Sequence record: NC_135731.1
From: a phage
Length of the DNA stretch: 64,000 bases
Strand: one strand, 5' to 3'
Position numbers and translations under genes: made by a program. The notes beneath the pieces are model-generated. The model had not been told where the DNA came from, ran no database searches, and worked only from the letters and a program-made list of their open reading frames with translations. Shown here piece after piece: positions 1,163 to 62,800 of this stretch (position 1 is its first letter; every line of letters begins with the position of its first letter).

Positions 1163-2098
1163 ATGACAAATGAGGAACGTATGATGAAGTATTTTAATGC
1201 AGATGACCTAGTAGACAAAGGTCTTGTAACCAGTCGGTATTATCCAGATCTTGGATTAAAGATCTATAAATATGCCAGAAAAGTATTCTACAACAATCTG
1301 TGGCATTTGTCTCCGCGTTTACTGGAGTGCCGAGGTATTGTTGTTGGCAATGAGGGGAATGTTGTGGCATGGCCTTTCACAAAAGTATTCAACTTAGGAG
1401 AAAACTCCACCAACCTACCGGACAGTAAACTTGTTACTGCGGTAGAGAAAAAGAACGGATTCCTCGGTGTGGTATCATCTCATAAAGGTGAACTGTTGTT
1501 CTCAACAACCGGGTCTCTTGATTCCCCATATTGTAACCTCGCAAAAGAAACCATCATGGAGCAATGTGGTAATTTAGATCTTATCAAGAAGGTTATGGGC
1601 AATGAAAACATGACATTCATGTTTGAAATTTGCCACCCTTCAGATCCGCATATTGTTCAGGAAGATCATGGCGCATATTTGATAGGTTGCAGATATAATG
1701 ATTCTGGAATAATGCTACCAGAAGCAGCTTTAGACGGGATTGCCAAATACCTTGGTGCAAAACGTCCTCACACTGTGCGTGAAATTCCGTTCAGCTATGC
1801 AAAAGAATTAGCTGCAGAAACAAGAGGTGAAGGGTATATGATTCGTAAGCCTTACTACCCTTATGATCTGCAGCTGAAGATCAAGTCTCCATACTATCTG
1901 GCACGGAAGGCTGTAATGAGGGGTAAAGCTTGGAAGATTTGGGATGATGATATCTTTAAACGTGTTGACGAAGAGTTTTACGGTATGGTAAAATTTATTC
2001 GTAGCAACTATACAGAAGATGTGTGGAATTGCTTATTAGAGCAGGAGCGTCGTGAGATACTGGACTACTATTTCCACAACGAGGACTATATGCAATGA
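1163..2098 (+). CDS. RNA ligase, T4 Rnl1 family
   Basis: Strong motif similarity to T4 RnlA: LLECRGIVV, KVFNLGEN, motif I KKNG (KxNG as in Trl1), LFSTTGSLDS. Confidence 0.85.
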   Translation: MTNEERMMKYFNADDLVDKGLVTSRYYPDLGLKIYKYARKVFYNNLWHLSPRLLECRGIVVGNEGNVVAWPFTKVFNLGENSTNLPDSKLVTAVEKKNGFLGVVSSHKGELLFSTTGSLDSPYCNLAKETIMEQCGNLDLIKKVMGNENMTFMFEICHPSDPHIVQEDHGAYLIGCRYNDSGIMLPEAALDGIAKYLGAKRPHTVREIPFSYAKELAAETRGEGYMIRKPYYPYDLQLKIKSPYYLARKAVMRGKAWKIWDDDIFKRVDEEFYGMVKFIRSNYTEDVWNCLLEQERREILDYYFHNEDYMQ

Positions 2099-2445
2099 AG
2101 AAGTGGATTGTGTGGCTTGATGATTTTAGAGATCCGTCAGATTATGGACTCCCAGACGCTCTGTGGCTAAAGAATTCTTCTGAGTTTATGGATTTTCTTA
2201 ATGATAAGAGAAAGCTCTACAGACGCGTATCTGAGTGGTATTTTGACAATGATCTAGGTGAAGTTCTTGAAGGGTACGACTGCTTCTCTGCGCTAGAGGA
2301 GAAACTTGTATTCGGAAAGCCACCACTTATTGACAACGTGATTATTTTCGTGCATACTTCTAATCCATCGGCAGCTCGTAAATTTATGCTTGCTGCTGAC
2401 TCATTCAAGAAGTTTGGAATAGAGATTAAACAAAACATCTACTGA
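2095..2445 (+). CDS. hypothetical protein (116 aa)
   Basis: ORF with ATGA overlap to ligase stop; no recognisable motif. Confidence 0.5.
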   Translation: MKKWIVWLDDFRDPSDYGLPDALWLKNSSEFMDFLNDKRKLYRRVSEWYFDNDLGEVLEGYDCFSALEEKLVFGKPPLIDNVIIFVHTSNPSAARKFMLAADSFKKFGIEIKQNIY

Positions 2446-2453
2446 GGACACTT

Positions 2454-3215
2454 ATGCGACGACTGATTATTATCTCCGGTGCTGGTTTGAGCGCTGAATC
2501 TGGTATCCCCACCTTCCGATCTGGTAGTACAGCAATGTGGGAGAATTTTAGCATCGATGAGGTATGCAACATCCACACCTTTGCCAAGAACTACGACAAG
2601 GTGCACGCATTCTATAATGCACGCCGTGCAGCTTTAGGGGGTGTTGAACCAAATATTGCCCATCTCCGCATCGCAGAATGGTATTCTCGTTGGTCTGGGC
2701 GTGTGATTAATCTTACAACCAACGTAGATGATCTCTTGGAGCGTGCTGGTGTTAAACATGAAGATATCTTACATGTCCATGGGTATTTGCCTGAAATCAC
2801 CTACGAAGATGCTGAAGGTAACGATGTAATTAAAAATATCGGATACACTGAGGTAGATACAGGCAAGTATATCTGGGTTAAGCCTAATGTGGTGTTCTTC
2901 GGAGAAGTAGCTCCGAAGTATACAGACATGTATGACCTGTTGACTTCTCTCACGAGCAATGATATGGTAATCCTGGTAGGTTGTTCTAACACAGTTATTA
3001 ATTTTAACTGGGAATTGTTTCCTGCTACTTGTAAAGGCACAAAACTGCTGATTGTAAACAAGTATGATTCGCAGAGTGCAGATGGAAGTGGCATTTCACG
3101 TAGCGACCTTTATCAATATGAGGATCGCGGGATCCCTGTATGGTTTAACGGTGCTGTTGACGCTTTCTCTGATAAAGCATTTATTGAAACTGTAGAAAAC
3201 TTTATGGAACTGTAA
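2454..3215 (+). CDS. Sir2-family NAD-dependent deacylase / ADP-ribosyltransferase (sirtuin)
   Basis: GAGLSAESGIPTFR NAD-binding motif, catalytic His in HVHG, CobB-like spacing; no zinc-binding Cys pairs. Confidence 0.8.
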   Translation: MRRLIIISGAGLSAESGIPTFRSGSTAMWENFSIDEVCNIHTFAKNYDKVHAFYNARRAALGGVEPNIAHLRIAEWYSRWSGRVINLTTNVDDLLERAGVKHEDILHVHGYLPEITYEDAEGNDVIKNIGYTEVDTGKYIWVKPNVVFFGEVAPKYTDMYDLLTSLTSNDMVILVGCSNTVINFNWELFPATCKGTKLLIVNKYDSQSADGSGISRSDLYQYEDRGIPVWFNGAVDAFSDKAFIETVENFMEL

Positions 3216-19534: not shown

Positions 19535-20623
19535 ATGGCTGTATTTAATGCTGAGAACACCGCTCATAAAACTGGTGACTATCCGCTGTTTCTAGGACAG
19601 CAAATGGGTATGTACGACTCTATTAACAAAAAATATCCACAACTGTTCGAACTGTACAAAAAACAAAAAGAACAAGACTGGGCAGAGGATGAAGTGGATT
19701 TGTCGCAATCTATTTCAGATTTTGTAACATGCTCCAAGTCAACTTATGACGTGATGGTGCAAACCTTGATGTGGCAATGGGAGGCTGATAGCGTTGCGGC
19801 AAGATCGATCATCTGCCTCTTTTCACCATTCATCACTAATAGTGAGCTTTTCACTCTATTGATGAAACAGTCGGAGATTGAAGTTCTTCACGCACTAACT
19901 TACTCAGAGATTGTTAGACAATGCCTCCCCAATGCCCGTGAGATTATAGAAGAGATTCAGGAAAACCAAAACGTTCTGAGCAGATCCGGCGTTATTGTCA
20001 AATACATGCAAGAGCTTGAGGTTATTGGTGCAAAATATCGATTGGATCCTTCTAGTGTTGAAGAAGATACTGTGCGGAAATGCATTCTTAGAGCGCTTTT
20101 TGCACTTTTAGCTCTAGAAAGTATTGAGTTTATTGCAAGTTTTGCATGCACTTTCGCAGTAGCTGAGCAAGGTATTTTTGTTCAAGTGGCACAACTTGTT
20201 CAAAAAATTATGCTTGATGAAATGCTGCATTCGAAAGGTGATTTTGCTATCATCGATATCCTGCTTGATGATCCTGCATGGGAGCAAAGCTTCCTTGAGA
20301 TTAAGGGTGAGTTAAAAGAAATTCTTGACGAAGTGCGGACCAAGGAGTACGGTTGGAGTGACTATATTTTCAGCGAAGGAAGAGCGATTATAGGTCTTAA
20401 TTCACCGTTGCTTAAAGAATGGGTTGACTATAACTGCTCACCGATTTATGATTATTACGACATCGACAAAGACTTTGTGCCGCCAACAAAAGACCCGCTA
20501 CCGTTTATGCAGGTGTGGATGAAACCCTCACTGCAACAGACGGCTAACCAGGAAATGTCTAACACAGACTACCGCGTCAACACAACCGTTAACGACGCTG
20601 AAGAAGAAATTTGGGAGTTTTAA
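19535..20623 (+). CDS. nrdB: Ribonucleotide reductase class Ia small subunit
   Basis: 362 aa, di-iron ligand regions (EVLHALTYSEI, ESIEFIASFA) characteristic of NrdB. Confidence 0.85.
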   Translation: MAVFNAENTAHKTGDYPLFLGQQMGMYDSINKKYPQLFELYKKQKEQDWAEDEVDLSQSISDFVTCSKSTYDVMVQTLMWQWEADSVAARSIICLFSPFITNSELFTLLMKQSEIEVLHALTYSEIVRQCLPNAREIIEEIQENQNVLSRSGVIVKYMQELEVIGAKYRLDPSSVEEDTVRKCILRALFALLALESIEFIASFACTFAVAEQGIFVQVAQLVQKIMLDEMLHSKGDFAIIDILLDDPAWEQSFLEIKGELKEILDEVRTKEYGWSDYIFSEGRAIIGLNSPLLKEWVDYNCSPIYDYYDIDKDFVPPTKDPLPFMQVWMKPSLQQTANQEMSNTDYRVNTTVNDAEEEIWEF

Positions 20624-20626
20624 TAT

Positions 20627-20905
20627 ATGAGCTGCGAAAAATCTTTTTTCATCATCATTTACGGTAAGGATAACTGCCCACATTGTGTAAGAGCAAAAGA
20701 ATTTGCAGTCAGCAAAGGCATACCTTTCGTATACAAGACGCTAGGTGAAGGATATACAAAAGAAGAGCTTATCGAGAAGTGTAGCCCATTTGTTCCCAGA
20801 ACGTTGCCTCAGATTTTCTTAGAAAGCGACCTTGACAGTGTCCATATCGGAGGTGCTGACGATTTCATCTCTTTTGTTAAGAATGGTTTTGGAGAGAAAA
20901 AGTGA
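20627..20905 (+). CDS. Glutaredoxin-like protein
   Basis: CPHC active-site motif, thioredoxin-fold size; adjacent to nrd genes. Confidence 0.7.
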   Translation: MSCEKSFFIIIYGKDNCPHCVRAKEFAVSKGIPFVYKTLGEGYTKEELIEKCSPFVPRTLPQIFLESDLDSVHIGGADDFISFVKNGFGEKK

Positions 20906-21762
20906 AAGTTGTAAAACGGGACGGTAGAGAAGAGTTTTATAACGGAATTAAGGTGATCAAGGCGGCAGAGTCCGCCTTACTTGAGTCTGGACATACTGAA
21001 GAAGAAGCTTACCGGATTGCCTGCGCGGTTAATGAAGTTGTTGCCAATAATCTGCCAACCGACCAGTGCACGATTTCTGTAAAAAATATCCATATCCTTG
21101 TTGAAGATGCTCTTATGGATATGGGTTTAAAATGTGCAGCCCGAGAATACATCCAGTATAGACAGACAAGAGATAATAACAGAGAGGCAGGTGGAAAGCT
21201 GCTTGCAGATATTAGTGGCTTCTTGGATCGTACTTGTGATGAATTTACAAAAGAAAACGCAAATAAGCCTACTAATCATGTACACACTCATCGTGACCTG
21301 CTTGCAGGCATCCTTAGCAAACACCTTGCGTCAACACAGATCCTGCCAGATCGTGTCTCAGAAGAGCACAACAAGGGCTTCATCCATGTGCATGATCTTG
21401 ACTACTTGATCAGTCCGTTAACAAACTGTTGTTTGGTAAATTATCCGGATATGCTGGAAAACGGATTCAACATTGGCAACGCCCATGTCAGTAAGCCGAA
21501 GTCAATAGGGGTTGCAACAACAATCCTTAGCCAAATCTCTAGTGCAGTAGCTAGTGCTCAATATGGCGGTCAGACCATGAGCCATATTGATCATTATCTG
21601 GCACAGTATGCTGAAGCAACCTATGAGAAGAACCTTAAATTTTGTCAGGAACATTGGTTGCCAGATGCTGAGACTGTTGCAATGCAAATGACAGATAAAG
21701 ACGTGTTTGATAGTATGCAAACTTTGCTCTACCAAATCAATACGTTAACTTCTGTCAACGGT
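20902..21762 (+). CDS. nrdD: Anaerobic ribonucleotide reductase NrdD, exon 1
   Basis: N-terminus MKVVKRDGREEF matches NrdD; frame runs into a stop 3 nt after a group I 5' splice site (exon ends AACGGT). Confidence 0.8.
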
Positions 21763-21916
21763 TAACAAACTGGCCGTTGTAAAACTCTCCTAACCTCATA
21801 AGAGGGGTCGGTAAATCCGGCTAACGGGGAACGCTAAGGCGAAAGCTATGCCAATCCCGTGACTAGTTCTTACAGGAGTTGGAACGGTTGTAACGACTAA
21901 CGAAAGGCAGAGATGC

Positions 21917-21945
21917 TTGACAAACATTTCTGAACCAAGTAGTGT
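21917..21945 (+). promoter_or_regulatory. candidate promoter for intron-encoded HNH gene
   Basis: TTGACA-17 nt-TAGTGT inside intron. Confidence 0.35.
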
Positions 21946-21986
21946 AGGGGTTAGTTGAAATACTAACTTCGAAATGGAGAGGCTCT

Positions 21987-22520
21987 ATGAAAAAGATCAT
22001 TCTTAATGGTGAAGAATCAAACTATGTGATTGATGAGGTTGGAAACGTATACGGAAAACGTGGAATGCTACACCCAATATTGTGGGGAGGTTATGGAAAA
22101 GGTAACAAGCATGTTAAACGCCGTTATATGTACTCTTTCAACCACAAAGGTAAAAAGATTCGAATCCAAACCTCAAGGATTGTTGCCTTGTATTGTTTGC
22201 CAGATGTCCCAGAAGACCCTGAAAACTGGGAAGTGAATCATAAAGACGGCAATACATTGAATGATCATCCGTCTAACCTAGAGTGGGTTTTGCCGGAAGA
22301 TAATAAGAGACATGCTTTCCGAACAGGGCTTTGCCCAGGTAAGTGCTATAGGAAAGTGCAGGCATACAAAGGGAAAACCTTGGTTGGTGAATATCCTTCA
22401 CTCTATGCCTGTGCAAAAGCCTTAAATTTGAACGTAGGTAACGTTCATAGGGCTATCGAAGGAAATGCCGAAGGTAAGCATCTCACAATAAAGGGTTATT
22501 ATCTTATTGAAGTAGAGTAA
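21987..22520 (+). CDS. HNH homing endonuclease (intron-encoded)
   Basis: VNHKDGNTLNDHPSNLEWV HNH_3-type motif; GGAGAGG RBS. Confidence 0.8.
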   Translation: MKKIILNGEESNYVIDEVGNVYGKRGMLHPILWGGYGKGNKHVKRRYMYSFNHKGKKIRIQTSRIVALYCLPDVPEDPENWEVNHKDGNTLNDHPSNLEWVLPEDNKRHAFRTGLCPGKCYRKVQAYKGKTLVGEYPSLYACAKALNLNVGNVHRAIEGNAEGKHLTIKGYYLIEVE

Positions 22521-22559
22521 GAGATAGTCTGGCCCTGTGGAAACACAGGGAGGAGACAG

Positions 22560-23822
22560 CAGACTCCATTCATCACATTAAGTTTAGGTCTGGACACCTC
22601 AGTATTTGGTAGAATGATTACCAAAAACTACTTGAAAGTCCACAAAATGGGTCTTGGTGAAGAACGTATCACACCTGTGTTCCCTAAAGTGCTGTTCTTC
22701 CTAGAAGAGGGTGTCAACATGAACCCTGGAGATCCTAACTATGATTTGAAACGATTAGCTCTGGAATGCTCTGCAGAGCGGATTTATCCTGACTTTGTTT
22801 CTGTTCCACTAAATCGTAAAGTGACAGGCTCGACAGATGGCAAAGTAACGAGCATGGGTTGCCGGAGTTTTCTTAGCAAATACAATGACTTGGAAACAGG
22901 TGAGGAGAAATACCTCGGCAGATTCAACTTGGGTGTTGTTAGTCTTAACCTACCAATGATTGCGGCAAAAGCTAAGACGGAAGGTGTTGATTTCTTTGCC
23001 GTTCTTGACGAATACCTGGATCTTGCATACGAGGCTCACCTTGTAAGGGTTAACCGTCTAAAAGGAACAAAGGCAGGGCAGAACCCTATCATGTGGTGTG
23101 AAGGCGCTCTTGCTCGCCTGGATCCTGAAGAGAGTATTGATAAACTCTTCTATGACGGGTACGCTTCCATCAGTATTGGGTATATTGGTGTGTATGAAAC
23201 CTGTCAGATTTTGGGCAGGGAGGGTGACAAGGCTTTAGCTCTTGGAATACTCCAGCACATGAGAGATGCTTGTGAGCGATACAAGAAGGAAAGTGGACTA
23301 GCATTTAGCTTGTACGGAACCCCTTCTGAGAGTCTATGCTATAAAGCTGCAACCTGTCTGGATCGTGAATATCCTGAAGTGTTGAAGCACGAGCATGAAT
23401 ATCTCACCAACAGTTTCCATCAGCCAGTATGGATCAATAGCTCTCCTTTTGATAAGTGGAAGTATGAGGAAGGTTTTGCTATGATCTCCTCTGGTGGCAA
23501 CATCGGATATGTAGAGACACCAAATCTGAAAAACAACTTAGATGCTTTAGAGGCTCTTGTTGACTTCGGGTATAAACACATTATGTATTTTGGTATTAAC
23601 CAACCTGTGGATAAATGTCTCAAGTGTGGTTTCTCTGGTGAGTTTAGTGCAACAGCTAAAGGCTTTGTATGCCCAGAGTGTGGAAACCATGAAGAGGGAA
23701 CGATCAGTGTAATTCGACGTGTGTCTGGATACCTTTCCAGTCCTAACTCCCGTCCTTATAATAAAGGTAAGCAAGCGGAAGTTATCGAGAGAGTTAAGCA
23801 CTATGGAAGTTGTAGTTGCTGA
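22560..23822 (+). CDS. nrdD: Anaerobic ribonucleotide reductase NrdD, exon 2
   Basis: Frame encodes QTPFITLSLGLDTS continuing NrdD homology; C-terminal glycyl-radical motif RVSGYL and Cys cluster. Confidence 0.8.
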   Translation, partial: QTPFITLSLGLDTSVFGRMITKNYLKVHKMGLGEERITPVFPKVLFFLEEGVNMNPGDPNYDLKRLALECSAERIYPDFVSVPLNRKVTGSTDGKVTSMGCRSFLSKYNDLETGEEKYLGRFNLGVVSLNLPMIAAKAKTEGVDFFAVLDEYLDLAYEAHLVRVNRLKGTKAGQNPIMWCEGALARLDPEESIDKLFYDGYASISIGYIGVYETCQILGREGDKALALGILQHMRDACERYKKESGLAFSLYGTPSESLCYKAATCLDREYPEVLKHEHEYLTNSFHQPVWINSSPFDKWKYEEGFAMISSGGNIGYVETPNLKNNLDALEALVDFGYKHIMYFGINQPVDKCLKCGFSGEFSATAKGFVCPECGNHEEGTISVIRRVSGYLSSPNSRPYNKGKQAEVIERVKHYGSCSC

Positions 23823-23826
23823 TACT

Positions 23827-23858
23827 TGACAAAAGCCACAAGGATGTGGCATATTATT
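23827..23858 (+). promoter_or_regulatory. sigma70-type promoter with embedded palindrome
   Basis: TTGACA ... CATATT/TATTAT; inverted repeat GCCACA-AGGA-TGTGGC in spacer. Confidence 0.45.
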
Positions 23859-23885
23859 GACACACAGCGAGCTAGGAGGTACAGT

Positions 23886-24002
23886 ATGTCTAAAGGTATT
23901 TATAAAATTTGCAAGTGTGGTTGTCGTTGCAATCTTCGTTGGTGCAAGGCACTGGACGATTTTATTTGGCATTGTCCTGAATGCGACGCGGAGTACTTAT
24001 AA
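23886..24002 (+). CDS. small Cys-rich zinc-ribbon protein (38 aa)
   Basis: AGGAGG RBS 6 nt before ATG; CKCGCRC...CPEC pattern; below ORF-track length cutoff. Confidence 0.45.
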   Translation: MSKGIYKICKCGCRCNLRWCKALDDFIWHCPECDAEYL

Positions 24003-24153: not shown

Positions 24154-24399
24154 ATGATAGGTGTCTGTGTAAAAGCTAACAGATGGTTTACACTCGGTAA
24201 GGATTACGAAATTATCTTTCATTCGGACAGAGCCACAACAGTAGAAAGCGATGATGGGTGCTACTGGTTCGTTAGTTACCATGGTGATGGGTATTATAGA
24301 TCTACCGATTCCAGAGGGGAAGAAGCTGTTTTCTTAGATCGAGCTTATTGTGGCCTGAATATCCCTACCTCAAAGAGGATAAGGAATGAATGTTGTTAA
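24154..24399 (+). CDS. hypothetical protein (81 aa)
   Basis: ORF with RBS-like GAGGTTCC upstream. Confidence 0.45.
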   Translation: MIGVCVKANRWFTLGKDYEIIFHSDRATTVESDDGCYWFVSYHGDGYYRSTDSRGEEAVFLDRAYCGLNIPTSKRIRNECC

Positions 24400-24859
24400 T
24401 ATTATAGAGTGTAGTATGGTTGACGGCCCAGGCATTAGGACAACGGTGTTCTGTTCTGGTTGCCCACATCACTGCGTCGGTTGCCAAAACAAAAGTGTTT
24501 GGTCACCAGCTAAAGGGGAACCGTTAACAAATGACACTATTGAGAGTATACTTCACTCTGTAGAGCCGAAACATATTACTGGCGTTACATTATGCGGTGG
24601 CGAACCTTTAGCGCCTTATAATATTGATGGTATGTACTCGATTATTCGCGCTATCCGTGAACGCTTCGGCAACACAAAAACTATCTGGGTGTACACAGGG
24701 TATTTGTTTGAAGAGGTTCCCGATCACATTAAAGATAGTGTCGATTACATTATGGATGGTAAGTACGAGAAAGATAACCCAACCAAAAAACCCTTCAGAG
24801 GTAGTGATAACCAAAGAATGTTTAAAAAGACAGCAGGCGGTTGGGTTCAGGTTGACTAA
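24386..24859 (+). CDS. nrdG: Anaerobic ribonucleotide reductase activating protein (radical SAM)
   Basis: Radical SAM-type Cys cluster CSGCPHHCVGC; downstream of nrdD. Confidence 0.8.
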   Translation: MNVVNIIECSMVDGPGIRTTVFCSGCPHHCVGCQNKSVWSPAKGEPLTNDTIESILHSVEPKHITGVTLCGGEPLAPYNIDGMYSIIRAIRERFGNTKTIWVYTGYLFEEVPDHIKDSVDYIMDGKYEKDNPTKKPFRGSDNQRMFKKTAGGWVQVD

Positions 24860-61958: not shown

Positions 61959-62800
61959 CAATAGTTCAGGTAGGTCGTTAAGCTACCCCGCACCATTACG
62001 TGCACAGCCATACAGTTTCCTGTATGGATCGGACTATCTCACTACCTTGTTACCAAGGCACCTCCCATTTCGACCGCACTTGCTGGCCTACTCTACTCGC
62101 TTCTTCGCACCAATTTATGTTGGCGCTATGCTTTCGATAGTCTCTGAACGTTACTACCAGGTGTAGTTTTTAGAGATATGTTTCCACTGTCTTCTTTGCT
62201 TTATGGCTCTGACCGTCTCATAAGGATATCCAAGATCCCTAATCTCGCATTGTCGTAGACCACTCTGTAACAGTTCGCAAATCTCCGTTACCTCATCCTC
62301 GGTCAGTACAGCGTTGGCATTATACTCACCGACTGGCCTTACTCTGAGGTCATTATCATAAGCGTGTTTGATATTTCCACCAGGGGTGGTCCATTCAAGG
62401 TTCCAGTATGCATTGTTGTATTTGTTTCCGTCCTTATGGTTCACCCATGTGAGCCTTTCAGGATCAGGGTTTGATACAAAGCATTCAGCAACCAAGTGGT
62501 GGACACCTTTTGTGCACTGCTTCCCCTCGATGAACATGGTTACGCAAAGGTAACCTCGACCATTATCAAAACAAAACATTGTTGTATGATCACGTTTCGA
62601 TAAAGGTATTGTTCCATCATCAAACACGGTATATCCGTGATAATCAACTGATCTAGCCATTTTAACTACACCCCTTTAGTCTTCGCTGCGGATTAGCATA
62701 TTGAGCTTTTACCATATTTAGGTGTAAAAGTCAACTTAGCCTTCCCGTCAATTAAAGAGGTTTTCGACGTGCATCACTGCACGAAGCCACAATGTTATTT
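61959..62800 (-). mobile_element. Group I intron in DNA polymerase gene carrying an HNH homing endonuclease gene
   Basis: 5' splice site after U of CAT (His); IGS GTGG 10 nt downstream; P10 GAT/ATT; terminal G; shares GAGATAGTC plus GAAA-tetraloop hairpin and GACTAAAGG elements with the nrdD intron. Confidence 0.7.
62154..62660 (-). CDS. HNH homing endonuclease (intron-encoded)
   Basis: VNHKDGNKYNNAYWNLEW HNH_3-type motif, paralogous to the nrdD intron endonuclease. Confidence 0.8.
   Translation of the reverse strand: MARSVDYHGYTVFDDGTIPLSKRDHTTMFCFDNGRGYLCVTMFIEGKQCTKGVHHLVAECFVSNPDPERLTWVNHKDGNKYNNAYWNLEWTTPGGNIKHAYDNDLRVRPVGEYNANAVLTEDEVTEICELLQSGLRQCEIRDLGYPYETVRAIKQRRQWKHISKNYTW

Follow-up and report, generated by a model that had tools for sequence, protein, structure and literature searches.

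The 64,000-nt window, meaning the whole stretch of DNA that was analysed, belongs to an rV5-like coliphage of the genus Vequintavirus, and at this locus its sequence shows 100% identity to phage phiWec196. The nrdD gene lies on the plus strand between 20902–23822 and is split by an insert of 797 nt at 21763–22559. Exon 1 (20902–21762) begins with a GTG codon that overlaps the stop codon of a glutaredoxin gene, and encodes an ATP-cone (Pfam, E 4.4e-14) and the N-terminal part of NrdD (positions 1–154 of the NRDD profile, E 2e-41). Its open reading frame (20902–21765, 287 aa) ends with a TAA at 21763–21765 right after the residues SVNG, as had been predicted. The frame reopens at 22560 (QTPFITLSLGLDTS...), where there is no start codon. 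Exon 2 (22560–23822) runs from QTPF through zinc-ribbon cysteines to the glycyl-radical motif RVSGYL and a stop, again in agreement with the earlier reading, and matches positions 156–562 of the NRDD profile (E 2e-112) as well as Gly_radical (E 3e-23). Once joined, the two parts give one polypeptide with the ATP-cone, NRDD barrel and C-terminal glycyl-radical domain of a class III ribonucleotide reductase (RNR), 45–46% identical to the T4 NrdD protein on either side of the junction. The nrdG gene is found downstream of nrdD, at 24386–24859.

At least six sister phages, ca. 96% identical, have an uninterrupted nrdD of 2124 nt that corresponds exactly, base for base, to exon 1 plus exon 2. Comparison with orthologs had been proposed as a check of the junction, and these alleles confirm it: SVNG|QTPF is exact. 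An artificial spliced query of 1000 nt gave a single ungapped alignment, at 94–96% identity, to JES2013, CarlMeissner, naam, Gotham, rV5_ev158 and others. Exon 1 is colinear with positions 940–1800 of the intronless nrdD (JES2013, naam, Gotham, rV5_ev158) and exon 2 with positions 1801–3063 of the intronless alleles. The annotations of JES2013, Gotham and rV5_ev158 likewise start nrdD at the GTG of exon 1 and give it as a single CDS of 2124 nt (861 + 1263); the annotated CDS is 2139 nt in naam, and in CarlMeissner it begins at an internal ATG. The intronless alleles read AACGGG|CAAACT, so that the boundaries of the insert are unambiguous, and the flanks of empty and occupied sites differ only at −1 (G when empty, U when occupied) and at +3. 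The insert begins with the in-frame stop UAA and ends, as predicted, with G22559 (the omega-G), and a G also closes the intron in all relatives. Its removal restores the conserved frame at the length of the intronless gene, and given the uninterrupted alleles the presence of an insert within nrdD is not a matter of chance. Records of sister phages in the BASEL collection in GenBank already annotate a joined nrdD CDS, marked as containing an intron.

The fold of the insert is that of a group I intron of the T4-like IA2 type, with P1, a P3/P7 pseudoknot, P4–P6, P7.1/P7.2, P8, P9.0, P9 and a terminal G. The conserved group I core is complete – P3–P8, P4–P6, the P7/P3 pseudoknot and P9. Across divergent copies, 96.1% of the cells in a model of 82 pairs were paired, against 38–47% when the partners were slid, and there were 12 compensatory pairs (both sides changed) against 0–4 in the slid controls, in a covariation sample of only 5–7 distinct sequences. 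None of 500 shuffles reached the observed pairing values. An unconstrained minimum free energy (MFE) fold recovered P1, P3, P4–P6, P7.1, P7.2, P8 and P9 (z = −5.18). A variant of the intron that has no ORF retains all of the helices with differing sequences, including a compensated P3.

P1 (21757–21778) is formed by the exon sequence AACGGU (21757–21762) and the internal guide GCCGUU (21773–21778), with a U21762•G21773 pair at the 5’ splice site, exactly the pairing originally proposed. It is kept in all five aligned rows that contain the endonuclease gene and in both ORF-less copies. The accompanying prediction of a P10 helix fared less well: in the window CUG (21770–21772, the 5’ strand) can pair with CAG (22560–22562), but among relatives the pairing is not kept, with 80% of cells paired and two of the three pairs broken in some sequences. 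There is no P2; GUAAAA leads directly into the 5’ strand of P3, CUCUCC (21785–21790), which pairs with GGAGAG (21976–21981). In ORF-less relatives P3 is CUCUGC/GCAG(G/A)G, a compensatory change from C-G to G-C.

The junction J3/4, between P3 (21785–90) and P4 (21824–29), is unusual. In group I introns this junction is canonically about 3 nt long and, as a rule, forms triple contacts within the catalytic core; it is UAAA in T4 td and UAAAA in T4 sunY. Here it is 34 nt and contains two covarying hairpins between 21794–21820: CCUC/GAGG (21794–97/21802–05) and UCGG/CCGG (21808–11/21817–20). In the copies with the endonuclease gene each hairpin shows a single compensatory pair, further compensated variants occur in the ORF-less copies, and both hairpins are in the MFE fold. 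The short J3/4 of 3–5 nt that is one of the marks of IA2 introns is therefore absent, and the intron is filed as IA2-like with a variant J3/4 junction. An insertion of this size could impair folding.

P4–P5–P6 (21824–21887) consists of P4 (21824–29/21855–60), P5 (21833–34/21850–51 and 21838–40/21845–47, with a GAAA loop) and P6 (21863–73/21878–87), which carries compensatory changes; the motifs UAACGGGGAAC and CAAUCCCGUG match T4 td. The 5’ strand of P7, GACUA (21895–21899, within AACGACUA), is invariant in all copies and pairs with UAGUC (22525–22529), both strands being identical to those of T4 td, sunY and nrdB. The flanks of P7 and J8/7 are nearly as in the T4 introns (AAGAGA here, compared to AAGAUA, GAGAUA and GUGAUA). 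The two extra helices of the IA2 type, P7.1 and P7.2, are both present and both covary. P7.1 (21908–21932) is a hairpin of 8 bp (21908–15/21925–32), while in the ORF-less intron it has just 3 bp. P7.2 (21947–21970) is a hairpin of 9 bp (21947–55/21962–70) with one compensatory pair, followed by CGAAAU; the motif GUAGGG-hairpin-CGAAA(C/U)-P3’ is common to this intron and T4 td, sunY and nrdB. P8 pairs GCUCUAU (21982–21988) with GUAGAGU (22512–22518), with three of its seven pairs changed on both sides and 100% of cells paired, and in the ORF-less intron it is of unrelated sequence and fully paired. The 3’ core (22519–22559) is where the Rfam alignment matches best, and includes J8/7, the 3’ strand of P7 (22525–29), P9.0 (22530–31/22557–58), P9 (CCCUGUG-GAAA-CACAGGG, 22533–50, with three compensatory pairs) and the omega-G.

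A covariance-model search for the group I core had been named as a second check on the original prediction. The Rfam model RF00028 scored the window intron at 27.7 bits, with E values of 8e-5 when the region was searched and 0.005 when the whole window was, and the ORF-less relative at 29.8 bits, both below the gathering score of 50. Among the controls, T4 sunY scored 105 bits and T4 td 40.3 bits, and T4 nrdB was not detected. The T4 td intron, which has its ORF in P6a, is proven to self-splice. Because td is also below 50 and nrdB was missed, a sub-threshold score is a weakened objection to the intron in the window.

Of the ca. 120 Vequintavirus records, 27 have the intron with the endonuclease gene and 14 an ORF-less intron of 257 nt, placed at the same codon boundary; in the remainder the site is empty. 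Divergent copies of the intron are found at the same site in metagenomic phages. The intron is thus polymorphic for presence and absence, as mobile introns are, and it is more uniform than its surroundings – 97.1–99.5% identical between genomes in which the nrdD exons are 91–98% identical. Near-identical introns amid diverged exons fit a recent spread driven by the endonuclease.

The endonuclease gene (21987–22520, plus strand) encodes 177 aa and lies in the P8 loop. The predicted HNH ORF was borne out by Pfam HNH_3, at 29.3 bits against a cut-off of 24.8. The ORF also matches PHROG 59 (E 1.5e-26), and phmmer aligns residues 8–160 with I-HmuI (PDB 1U3E, E 2.7e-4); the I-HmuI NUMOD-like domain of Pfam scored 18.4 bits on the ORF, below its cut-off of 27. 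An AlphaFold model of the protein (pLDDT 87.9) has the overall fold and domain order of I-HmuI, namely an N-terminal sheet, the HNH motif, helices and a C-terminal helix-turn-helix. In a Foldseek search with this model, 1U3E was the sole significant PDB match (E 3.9e-10, probability 1.00), the next having E 0.08. The candidate target is ...TCTGTCAACGGG|CAAACTCCATTC... in intronless nrdD.

It is unlikely that the intron is real and its endonuclease no longer homes, being either inactive or kept for some other purpose, for instance to interfere with co-infecting relatives or to assist folding in the manner of a maturase. Asn84 aligns with the position equivalent to Asp74 of I-HmuI, the ORF-less introns are evidence that endonuclease loss occurs, and with only 2 nt separating intronless from occupied sites, self-cleavage is conceivable. 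Against this, H85, N97 and N106 of the HNH motif are invariant in all ten of the homologues, the ORF is intact at 177 aa in every endonuclease-carrying copy examined, and the uniformity of the intron between genomes with diverged exons is what homing would give.

Whether the ribozyme has decayed is a separate question. The insert could be the descendant of a group I intron that splices inefficiently, for example as a result of the J3/4 insertion, leaving nrdD effectively a pseudogene. The nrdD gene is dispensable in aerobic culture, so that propagation in the laboratory would not purge a splicing defect; the ORF-less form, too, has a low Rfam score; and 34 nt between P3 and P4 is unusual. This reading is nevertheless quite improbable. 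Both exons are intact and full-length in 27 of 27 genomes with the endonuclease gene and in 14 of 14 ORF-less genomes sampled, and lineages with endonucleases just 62–65% identical keep every helix by compensatory changes, which indicates that the fold is still under selection. Covariation extends to the J3/4 hairpins, which are thus being maintained rather than decaying.

The weakest alternative, a split gene without splicing in which an HNH cassette has divided nrdD so that two polypeptides are translated separately and then reassemble (as for nrdA-a/nrdA-b and mobE of Aeromonas phage Aeh1), takes its support from the many GenBank records with two NrdD CDSs flanking an HNH gene (FFH2 ORF105a/105b, FV3, slur16) and from documented cases of functional, non-splicing split RNR genes (PMC3653736; PMC7344957), but it is scarcely credible here: the downstream half has no independent start at 22560, the first ATG (22614, 18 codons inside) would lose 18 conserved residues including QTPF, annotators pick three different starts for exon 2, the complete covarying core includes helices that would be purposeless in a plain gene cassette, and a free-standing endonuclease cassette could not explain the ORF-less insert at the same codon boundary.

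The region 21763–22559 is therefore very probably a mobile, T4-like IA2-type group I intron in the nrdD gene of a Vequintavirus coliphage. Its exact boundaries, the covarying RNA structure, the family of the endonuclease and the polymorphism among phages are shown by the sequences, and its splicing, cleavage specificity, homing and promoter use are inferred. The original prediction, that nrdD is interrupted by a group I intron encoding an HNH homing endonuclease, gains support from the exact junction, the complete and covarying core, the I-HmuI-like ORF in the peripheral P8 loop and the patchy presence within the genus. In the pre-mRNA, the ribosome would halt at the UAA that opens the intron. 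The RNA would fold through P1–P9, and an external guanosine would attack after U21762, which P1 holds in its U•G pair; exon 1, once released, would in turn attack after G22559, joining ...AACGGU to CAGACU.... The spliced product would be a 707-aa NrdD, the length found in the intronless sisters, with protein identity compared around the junction. In mixed infections the I-HmuI-like protein most probably acts on intronless nrdD (...AACGGG|CAAACT...), nicking or cutting it, and recombinational repair would transfer to the recipient a copy of the intron with the exon bases beside it (GGT, CAG), which is homing. The element is real but is an ordinary selfish element.

The endonuclease gene was also predicted to have its own TTGACA promoter. 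The candidate (21917–21945, plus strand) consists of TTGACA (21917–21922) in the loop of P7.1, a spacer of 17 nt and TAGTGT (21940–21945). The −35 element is perfect, and L018 and L019 conserve both hexamers and the distance between them. In three divergent introns with the endonuclease gene TTGACAA does not vary, while the P7.1 stems around it covary. The −10 element is the weaker part of the prediction: it matches TATAAT at just 3 of 6 positions, and for this reason the site was not called in a consensus promoter scan. It is plausible that TTGACA-N17-TAGTGT acts as the promoter of the endonuclease gene. A sigma-70-type −35 box in the P7.1 loop is conserved only in the endonuclease-carrying copies; the ORF-less intron has no TTGACA.

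The start of the endonuclease gene overlaps the ribozyme core. The 3’ strand of P3 (GGAGAG, 21976–21981) doubles as the Shine-Dalgarno sequence, 5 nt upstream of the ATG at 21987, the 5’ strand of P8 includes the AU of the start codon, and the 3’ strand of P8 is made of the last codons of the ORF and the U of its stop codon. Translation from the folded pre-mRNA should therefore be blocked. A shorter transcript from TTGACA-N17-TAGTGT, in P7.1 and J7.1/7.2, would lack the 5’ strand of P3 and would leave the ribosome site exposed. T4 offers a precedent, in which an intron-internal promoter goes together with a sequestered ribosome-binding site (PMC2988022). A tentative extension, somewhat doubtful, is that this family of introns is a distinct structural and regulatory variant of IA2, with no P2, a covarying two-hairpin module in J3/4 and a built-in expression switch, the endonuclease being made solely from the short internal transcript and never from the splicing pre-mRNA. 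The nuclease may also serve as a weapon between co-infecting Vequintaviruses.

The closest parallel by gene is the T4 nrdD (sunY) intron with I-TevII, which interrupts the same host gene, for the large subunit of class III RNR. The parallel originally drawn with it stands as one of kind, with an HNH rather than a GIY-YIG enzyme, but not of place: the T4 insertion site is 32 nt upstream of this one, within ...AYE|YEVNTL..., and the I-TevII ORF is downstream of P9 while the ORF here is in P8. Both introns start U|UAA, with an in-frame stop at the 5’ splice site, and both go from GUAAAA straight into P3 with no P2 and have P7.1/P7.2 and the same P7 strands, with one base different in J8/7. They differ in J3/4 (5 nt in sunY) and in the score of RF00028 (105 compared to 27.7 bits), and there is no significant similarity in primary sequence between the two beyond short core motifs.

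The closest parallel by endonuclease is I-HmuI of the DNA polymerase intron of Bacillus phage SPO1, which is of the same family and similar in size (174 aa compared to 177 aa), and whose ORF likewise occupies the P8 loop of its group I intron. The SPO1 system differs in host gene and in host phylum, and the proteins are ca. 22% identical. Asn stands here in place of the residue aligned with Asp74 of I-HmuI, and nicking is a candidate activity of the 177-aa protein.

The T4 td (I-TevI) and RB3/T4 nrdB (I-TevIII) introns are likewise IA2 introns in nucleotide-metabolism genes of coliphages, and share the core motifs ACGGGGAAC, CAAUCCCGUG, AACGACUA and AUAGUCUG with this intron. The td and nrdB ORFs are in P6a rather than P8, and td has a P2. 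I-TevIII, encoded within an RNR gene, is also an HNH enzyme (PMC1865063, PMC2988022), but of a different, larger type that cuts both strands as a dimer. As here, one intron helix is built in part from the 3’ end of the endonuclease ORF (PMC2988022).

In the same subfamily, Vequintavirinae, the related Certrevirus phage CB7 has HNH-encoding introns in terL, the DNA polymerase gene, nrdA and nrdB, with splicing shown by RT-PCR (PMC7344957). An interruption of the CB7 nrdD gene is not reported. The nrdA/mobE arrangement of Aeromonas phage Aeh1 similarly has an HNH endonuclease gene separating the halves of an RNR gene. The Aeh1 locus lacks a ribozyme, and each half is translated as its own polypeptide, while the nrdD insert in the window has a full group I core and is followed by an exon 2 without a start codon.

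The nrdD gene of the window (20902–23822), which encodes the class III (anaerobic) ribonucleotide reductase, follows nrdB (19535–20623) and a glutaredoxin gene (20627–20905) and precedes nrdG (24386–24859). As originally predicted, its first ORF (20902–21765) ends in ...SVNG and then TAA, and the homologous frame opens at 22560 (QTPFITLSLG...) without a start codon. The first piece, 287 amino acids from a GTG start, contains an ATP-cone and positions 1–154 of the Pfam NRDD profile, and the second contains positions 156–562 and the glycyl-radical domain. The HNH ORF expected within the insert (21987–22520) is also present and scores above the Pfam HNH_3 cut-off. The GTG at 20902 overlaps the glutaredoxin stop codon (GTGA), has GGAGAG 5–6 nt upstream, and begins a frame encoding the full ATP-cone (Pfam E 4.4e-14).

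The 2921-nt nrdD region is 100% identical to that of Escherichia phage phiWec196, and ca. 120 Vequintavirus (rV5-like) records match it at 91–98% identity. An artificial spliced query joined 500 nt from either side of the intron (the end of exon 1 and the start of exon 2), and all 1000 nt of it align without a break to JES2013, CarlMeissner, naam, Gotham, rV5_ev158, and other sister phages at 94–96% identity. A single 2124-nt nrdD coding sequence with the same GTG start is annotated in JES2013, Gotham and rV5_ev158, equal to the 861 + 1263 nt of the window exons; that of naam is 2139 nt, and that of CarlMeissner starts at an internal ATG. Empty sites read ...AACGGG/CAAACT... and occupied sites ...AACGGT/intron/CAGACT.... 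Alignment of the orthologs at the junction showed that intronless alleles encode SVNG/QTPF, the same protein sequence as occupied sites; the junction peptide of the joined NrdD would be ...TSVNGQTPFITL.... Neither boundary can be slid, and the intron is therefore 21763–22559, 797 nt. The synonymous G-to-U difference at position −1 provides the U needed at a group I 5’ splice site. Inteins and frameshifting were dropped as explanations – the insert has a ribozyme fold and does not code in the nrdD frame, where it meets UAA at once.

The helices of this fold were assigned by comparison with three T4 introns (td, sunY, and nrdB) and with relatives. P1 (21757–62/21773–78) has a U•G pair at the splice site. 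The core consists of P3 (21785–90/21976–81), P4 (21824–29/21855–60), P5 (21833–34, 21838–40/21845–47, 21850–51, with a GAAA loop), P6 (21863–73/21878–87), P7 (21895–99/22525–29), P7.1 (21908–15/21925–32), P7.2 (21947–55/21962–70), P8 (21982–88/22512–18), which encloses the ORF, P9.0 (22530–31/22557–58), and P9 (22533–39/22544–50, with a GAAA loop), followed by the omega-G at 22559. The P10 pairing of the original prediction exists (21770–72/22560–62), but in the window only.

Two further, divergent copies of the intron, at the same codon boundary, were located on metagenomic contigs (L018 and L019) through endonuclease homologues with 62–65% identity. Five introns of the endonuclease-bearing type were aligned with their ORFs deleted, and standard pairs occupied 96.1% of pair cells, compared to 38–47% when partners were slid by 1–3 columns. 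Both sides had changed in 12 pairs (three in P8, three in P9, two in P7.1, and one each in P6, P7.2, and the two hairpins between P3 and P4), compared to 0–4 in the slid controls. None of 500 shuffles reached the observed pairing values. The unconstrained minimum free energy fold of the ORF-deleted window intron (z = −5.18) contains all helices except P7, which is pseudoknotted, P9.0, and P10. A 257-nt relative without an endonuclease gene at the same nrdD site (in AlexBoehm and 241Ecol014PP) retains every helix although the sequences differ – its P3 is CUCUGC/GCAG(G/A)G in place of CUCUCC/GGAGAG. This compensatory change and homology to T4 td, sunY, and nrdB are the basis for the P3 assignment. 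The Rfam placement of P3, with the 5’ strand beside P4 and P3’ at GGCAGAG (21906–21912), was rejected, as that 5’ strand has no complement. Also rejected was a P2 formed from CUCUCC and GAGGGG, which is mismatched in all variants and would make a P3 impossible.

Between P3 and P4 is an insert of 34 nt with two hairpins (21794–97/21802–05 and 21808–11/21817–20; 21794–21820 overall), flanked by a UAAC...UAAC direct repeat. Because both hairpins covary, they appear to be maintained. To our knowledge, a two-hairpin, 34-nt insertion at this position has no precedent.

A search of the whole window with Rfam at the gathering threshold had no matches. The group I model RF00028 matched the intron only when an E-value threshold was used (E 8e-5, 27.7 bits, below the curated 50), and the 534-nt ORF caused the model to misalign the 5’ half. 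Among control introns, T4 td, which self-splices and has its ORF in P6a, scored 40.3 bits, sunY, with its ORF outside the core, scored 105 bits, and T4 nrdB was undetected; a score below threshold is therefore weak evidence against a group I intron. Since the ORF-less intron also reaches only 29.8 bits, this intron family departs from the Rfam consensus.

Features shared with the T4 introns include P7.1/P7.2, a GUAGGG-hairpin-CGAAA(C/U)-P3’ motif, and the core strings ACGGGGAAC, CAAUCCCGUG, AACGACUA, and A(G/U)AUAGUCUG. By these features the intron belongs to the T4-type IA2 group. A P2 is missing, as in sunY, and GUAAAA leads directly to P3. In contrast to all the T4 introns, it has 34 nt and two small covarying hairpins between P3 and P4; td and sunY have 4–5 nt there. 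A profile of the intron family had no nhmmer matches to T4 td, nrdB, or nrdD, even with --max, and Smith-Waterman alignments with the T4 introns found short core motifs only (z 1.4 to 5.2). Similarity in primary sequence is restricted to the core motifs, and close sequence homology is not claimed. A distant BLAST search with the first 224 nt of the intron matched, outside Vequintavirus nrdD, only 42 nt of core in a Bacillus phage.

Of the ca. 120 Vequintavirus records, 27 have the intron with its ORF and 14 have it in ORF-less form; those sampled from the rest are empty at this site. Between genomes with the endonuclease gene, the intron is 97.1–99.5% identical, exon 1 95.5–98.0%, and exon 2 91.0–98.0%, a pattern consistent with recent lateral spread. 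In the ORF-less intron, identity is only ca. 86% over the first 139 nt, the part from P7.1 to P8 is unalignable, and the flanking exon codons (GTAAACGGT...CAAACCCCTTTT) have eight or nine further synonymous differences. For these reasons it appears to represent an older lineage of its own rather than one derived recently by deletion.

The 177-amino-acid endonuclease matches PHROG 59 (E 1.5e-26) and aligns over nearly its full length with I-HmuI (PDB 1U3E, E 2.7e-4). Its AlphaFold model (mean pLDDT 87.9) has 1U3E as the sole significant PDB fold match (Foldseek E 3.9e-10; next E 0.08). H85, N97, and N106 are invariant across ten homologues, and Asn84 is aligned with I-HmuI Asp74. The SPO1 DNA polymerase intron encodes I-HmuI in its P8 loop, and I-HmuI nicks DNA in a strand-specific way; the 177-amino-acid enzyme may also be a nicking enzyme.

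The first intron codon in the nrdD frame is UAA, a feature shared with T4 td and sunY, and ribosomes would stop at the splice site. The 3’ strand of P3 doubles as the Shine-Dalgarno sequence of the endonuclease ORF (GGAGAG, 21976–81). The AUG of that ORF lies within the 5’ strand of P8, whose 3’ strand consists of the last two codons and the U of the stop codon. With these signals in P3 and P8, folded pre-mRNA should not be translated. The P7.1 loop contains TTGACA (21917–22), which TAGTGT follows after a spacer of 17 nt, and a transcript from near 21952 would be without the P3 5’ strand, leaving the ribosome site exposed. The predicted promoter is plausible – TTGACAA and the spacing do not vary among the window, L018, and L019, though the surrounding stem covaries, but the −10 element matches at only 3/6 positions, and for that reason a consensus scan made no call. 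The ORF-less intron does not have TTGACA.

The window has a second group I intron on the minus strand (61959–62800; RF00028 38.6 bits, E 2.6e-6), with an HNH ORF of 168 amino acids (62154–62660; PHROG 59 E 1.8e-37). It interrupts the family-A DNA polymerase gene at ...IIYYH/DEYQLQV..., apparently the catalytic HDE motif C; its putative boundaries, CCAU/AAAUAAC...CUAUUG/GAUGAG, were read from the window alone. Some relatives have a second nrdD intron at a site unoccupied in the window (between 22859 and 22860). It is a group I intron, td-like and 762 nt long, whose HNH ORF (169 amino acids) is not that of the nrdD intron in the window, and it was seen in L003 (3459–4220), L004, and L017, sequences of relatives, and its carriers include phita32, JEP1, 241Ecol014PP, phiWec191, and navn. 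Like T4 td, it starts GGGU/AAACUAUAACUGCUCAUGUAAAAUCUAUCUA and ends CUGAACAUAAUG. Its insertion point separates the Gly codon from the Cys codon in ...SMG/CRSF..., probably at the active-site cysteine of NrdD. In L018 and L019, nrdD is in three or four pieces. L018 (2058–2390 and 3850–4090) has two further group I matches, a weak one upstream (23.6 bits) and a strong ORF-less one downstream (77.3 bits), and L019 (1477–2470) has a gene for a 206-amino-acid HNH protein between the first two NrdD fragments. The nrdD gene appears to be an intron hotspot, with at least four sites in these phages.

The practical use of the result lies in annotation. Most public Vequintavirus records cut nrdD into two or three “NrdD” fragments or hypotheticals, and the record identical to the window labels all the pieces hypothetical; a correctly joined coding sequence gives a normal 707-amino-acid enzyme. 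The GTG start is used in the JES2013, naam, and Gotham records, while many others (BASEL, phita32, and 241Ecol014PP among them) begin at an ATG 213 nt later (21115) and so lose the ATP-cone. Nineteen “Campylobacter phage” records (MG0656xx, host Campylobacter jejuni) have this Vequintavirus nrdD region at 94–96% identity, and their host labels look doubtful. Right after the nrdD stop are two tandem TTGACA-type promoter-like sites (23826–23855 and 23857–23885, 10/12 matches each). A GC-rich 6-bp hairpin (23835–23850) lies upstream of a small Cys-rich ORF (23826–24002) that reads MSKGIYK... from ATG 23886. The nrdD-nrdG interval differs among sister phages – WalterGehring has a 993-nt “putative homing endonuclease” there.

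The nrdD intron is already known through public annotation. BASEL records MZ501111 and MZ501048 have nrdD as a two-part joined coding sequence with a “putative homing endonuclease” within, the boundaries having been set by comparative genomics (PMC8594841), and in FV3 (JQ031132) and FFH2 (KJ190158) the ORF that separates the two NrdD fragments is labelled as an HNH homing endonuclease. Full-text literature searches identified no paper describing it. Minor points that are new are the insertion between P3 and P4 and the way in which translation signals overlap P3 and P8; both are of small interest to ribozyme specialists. Vequintavirus also provides a useful natural series – empty site, ORF-less intron, intron with endonuclease gene, and second intron site – and cultured BASEL phages with these states would allow direct measurement of homing, co-conversion, and intron-mediated competition. 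Among them, Bas51 WalterGehring has an intron 99.4% identical to that of the window, and Bas48 CarlMeissner is intronless.

The intron adds one example to a known pattern, in which conserved codons of phage ribonucleotide reductase genes are targeted by group I introns that carry homing endonucleases. The papers on rV5 and LL12 report introns in terL and DNA polymerase and none in nrdD. Certrevirus CB7, of the same subfamily, has HNH introns in terL, DNA polymerase, nrdA, and nrdB, with splicing demonstrated by RT-PCR (PMC7344957). The proposed parallel with the T4 nrdD intron is one of kind but not of identity – the T4 intron is 32 nt upstream of the window site, at ...AYE/YEVNTL..., and encodes a GIY-YIG enzyme downstream of P9.
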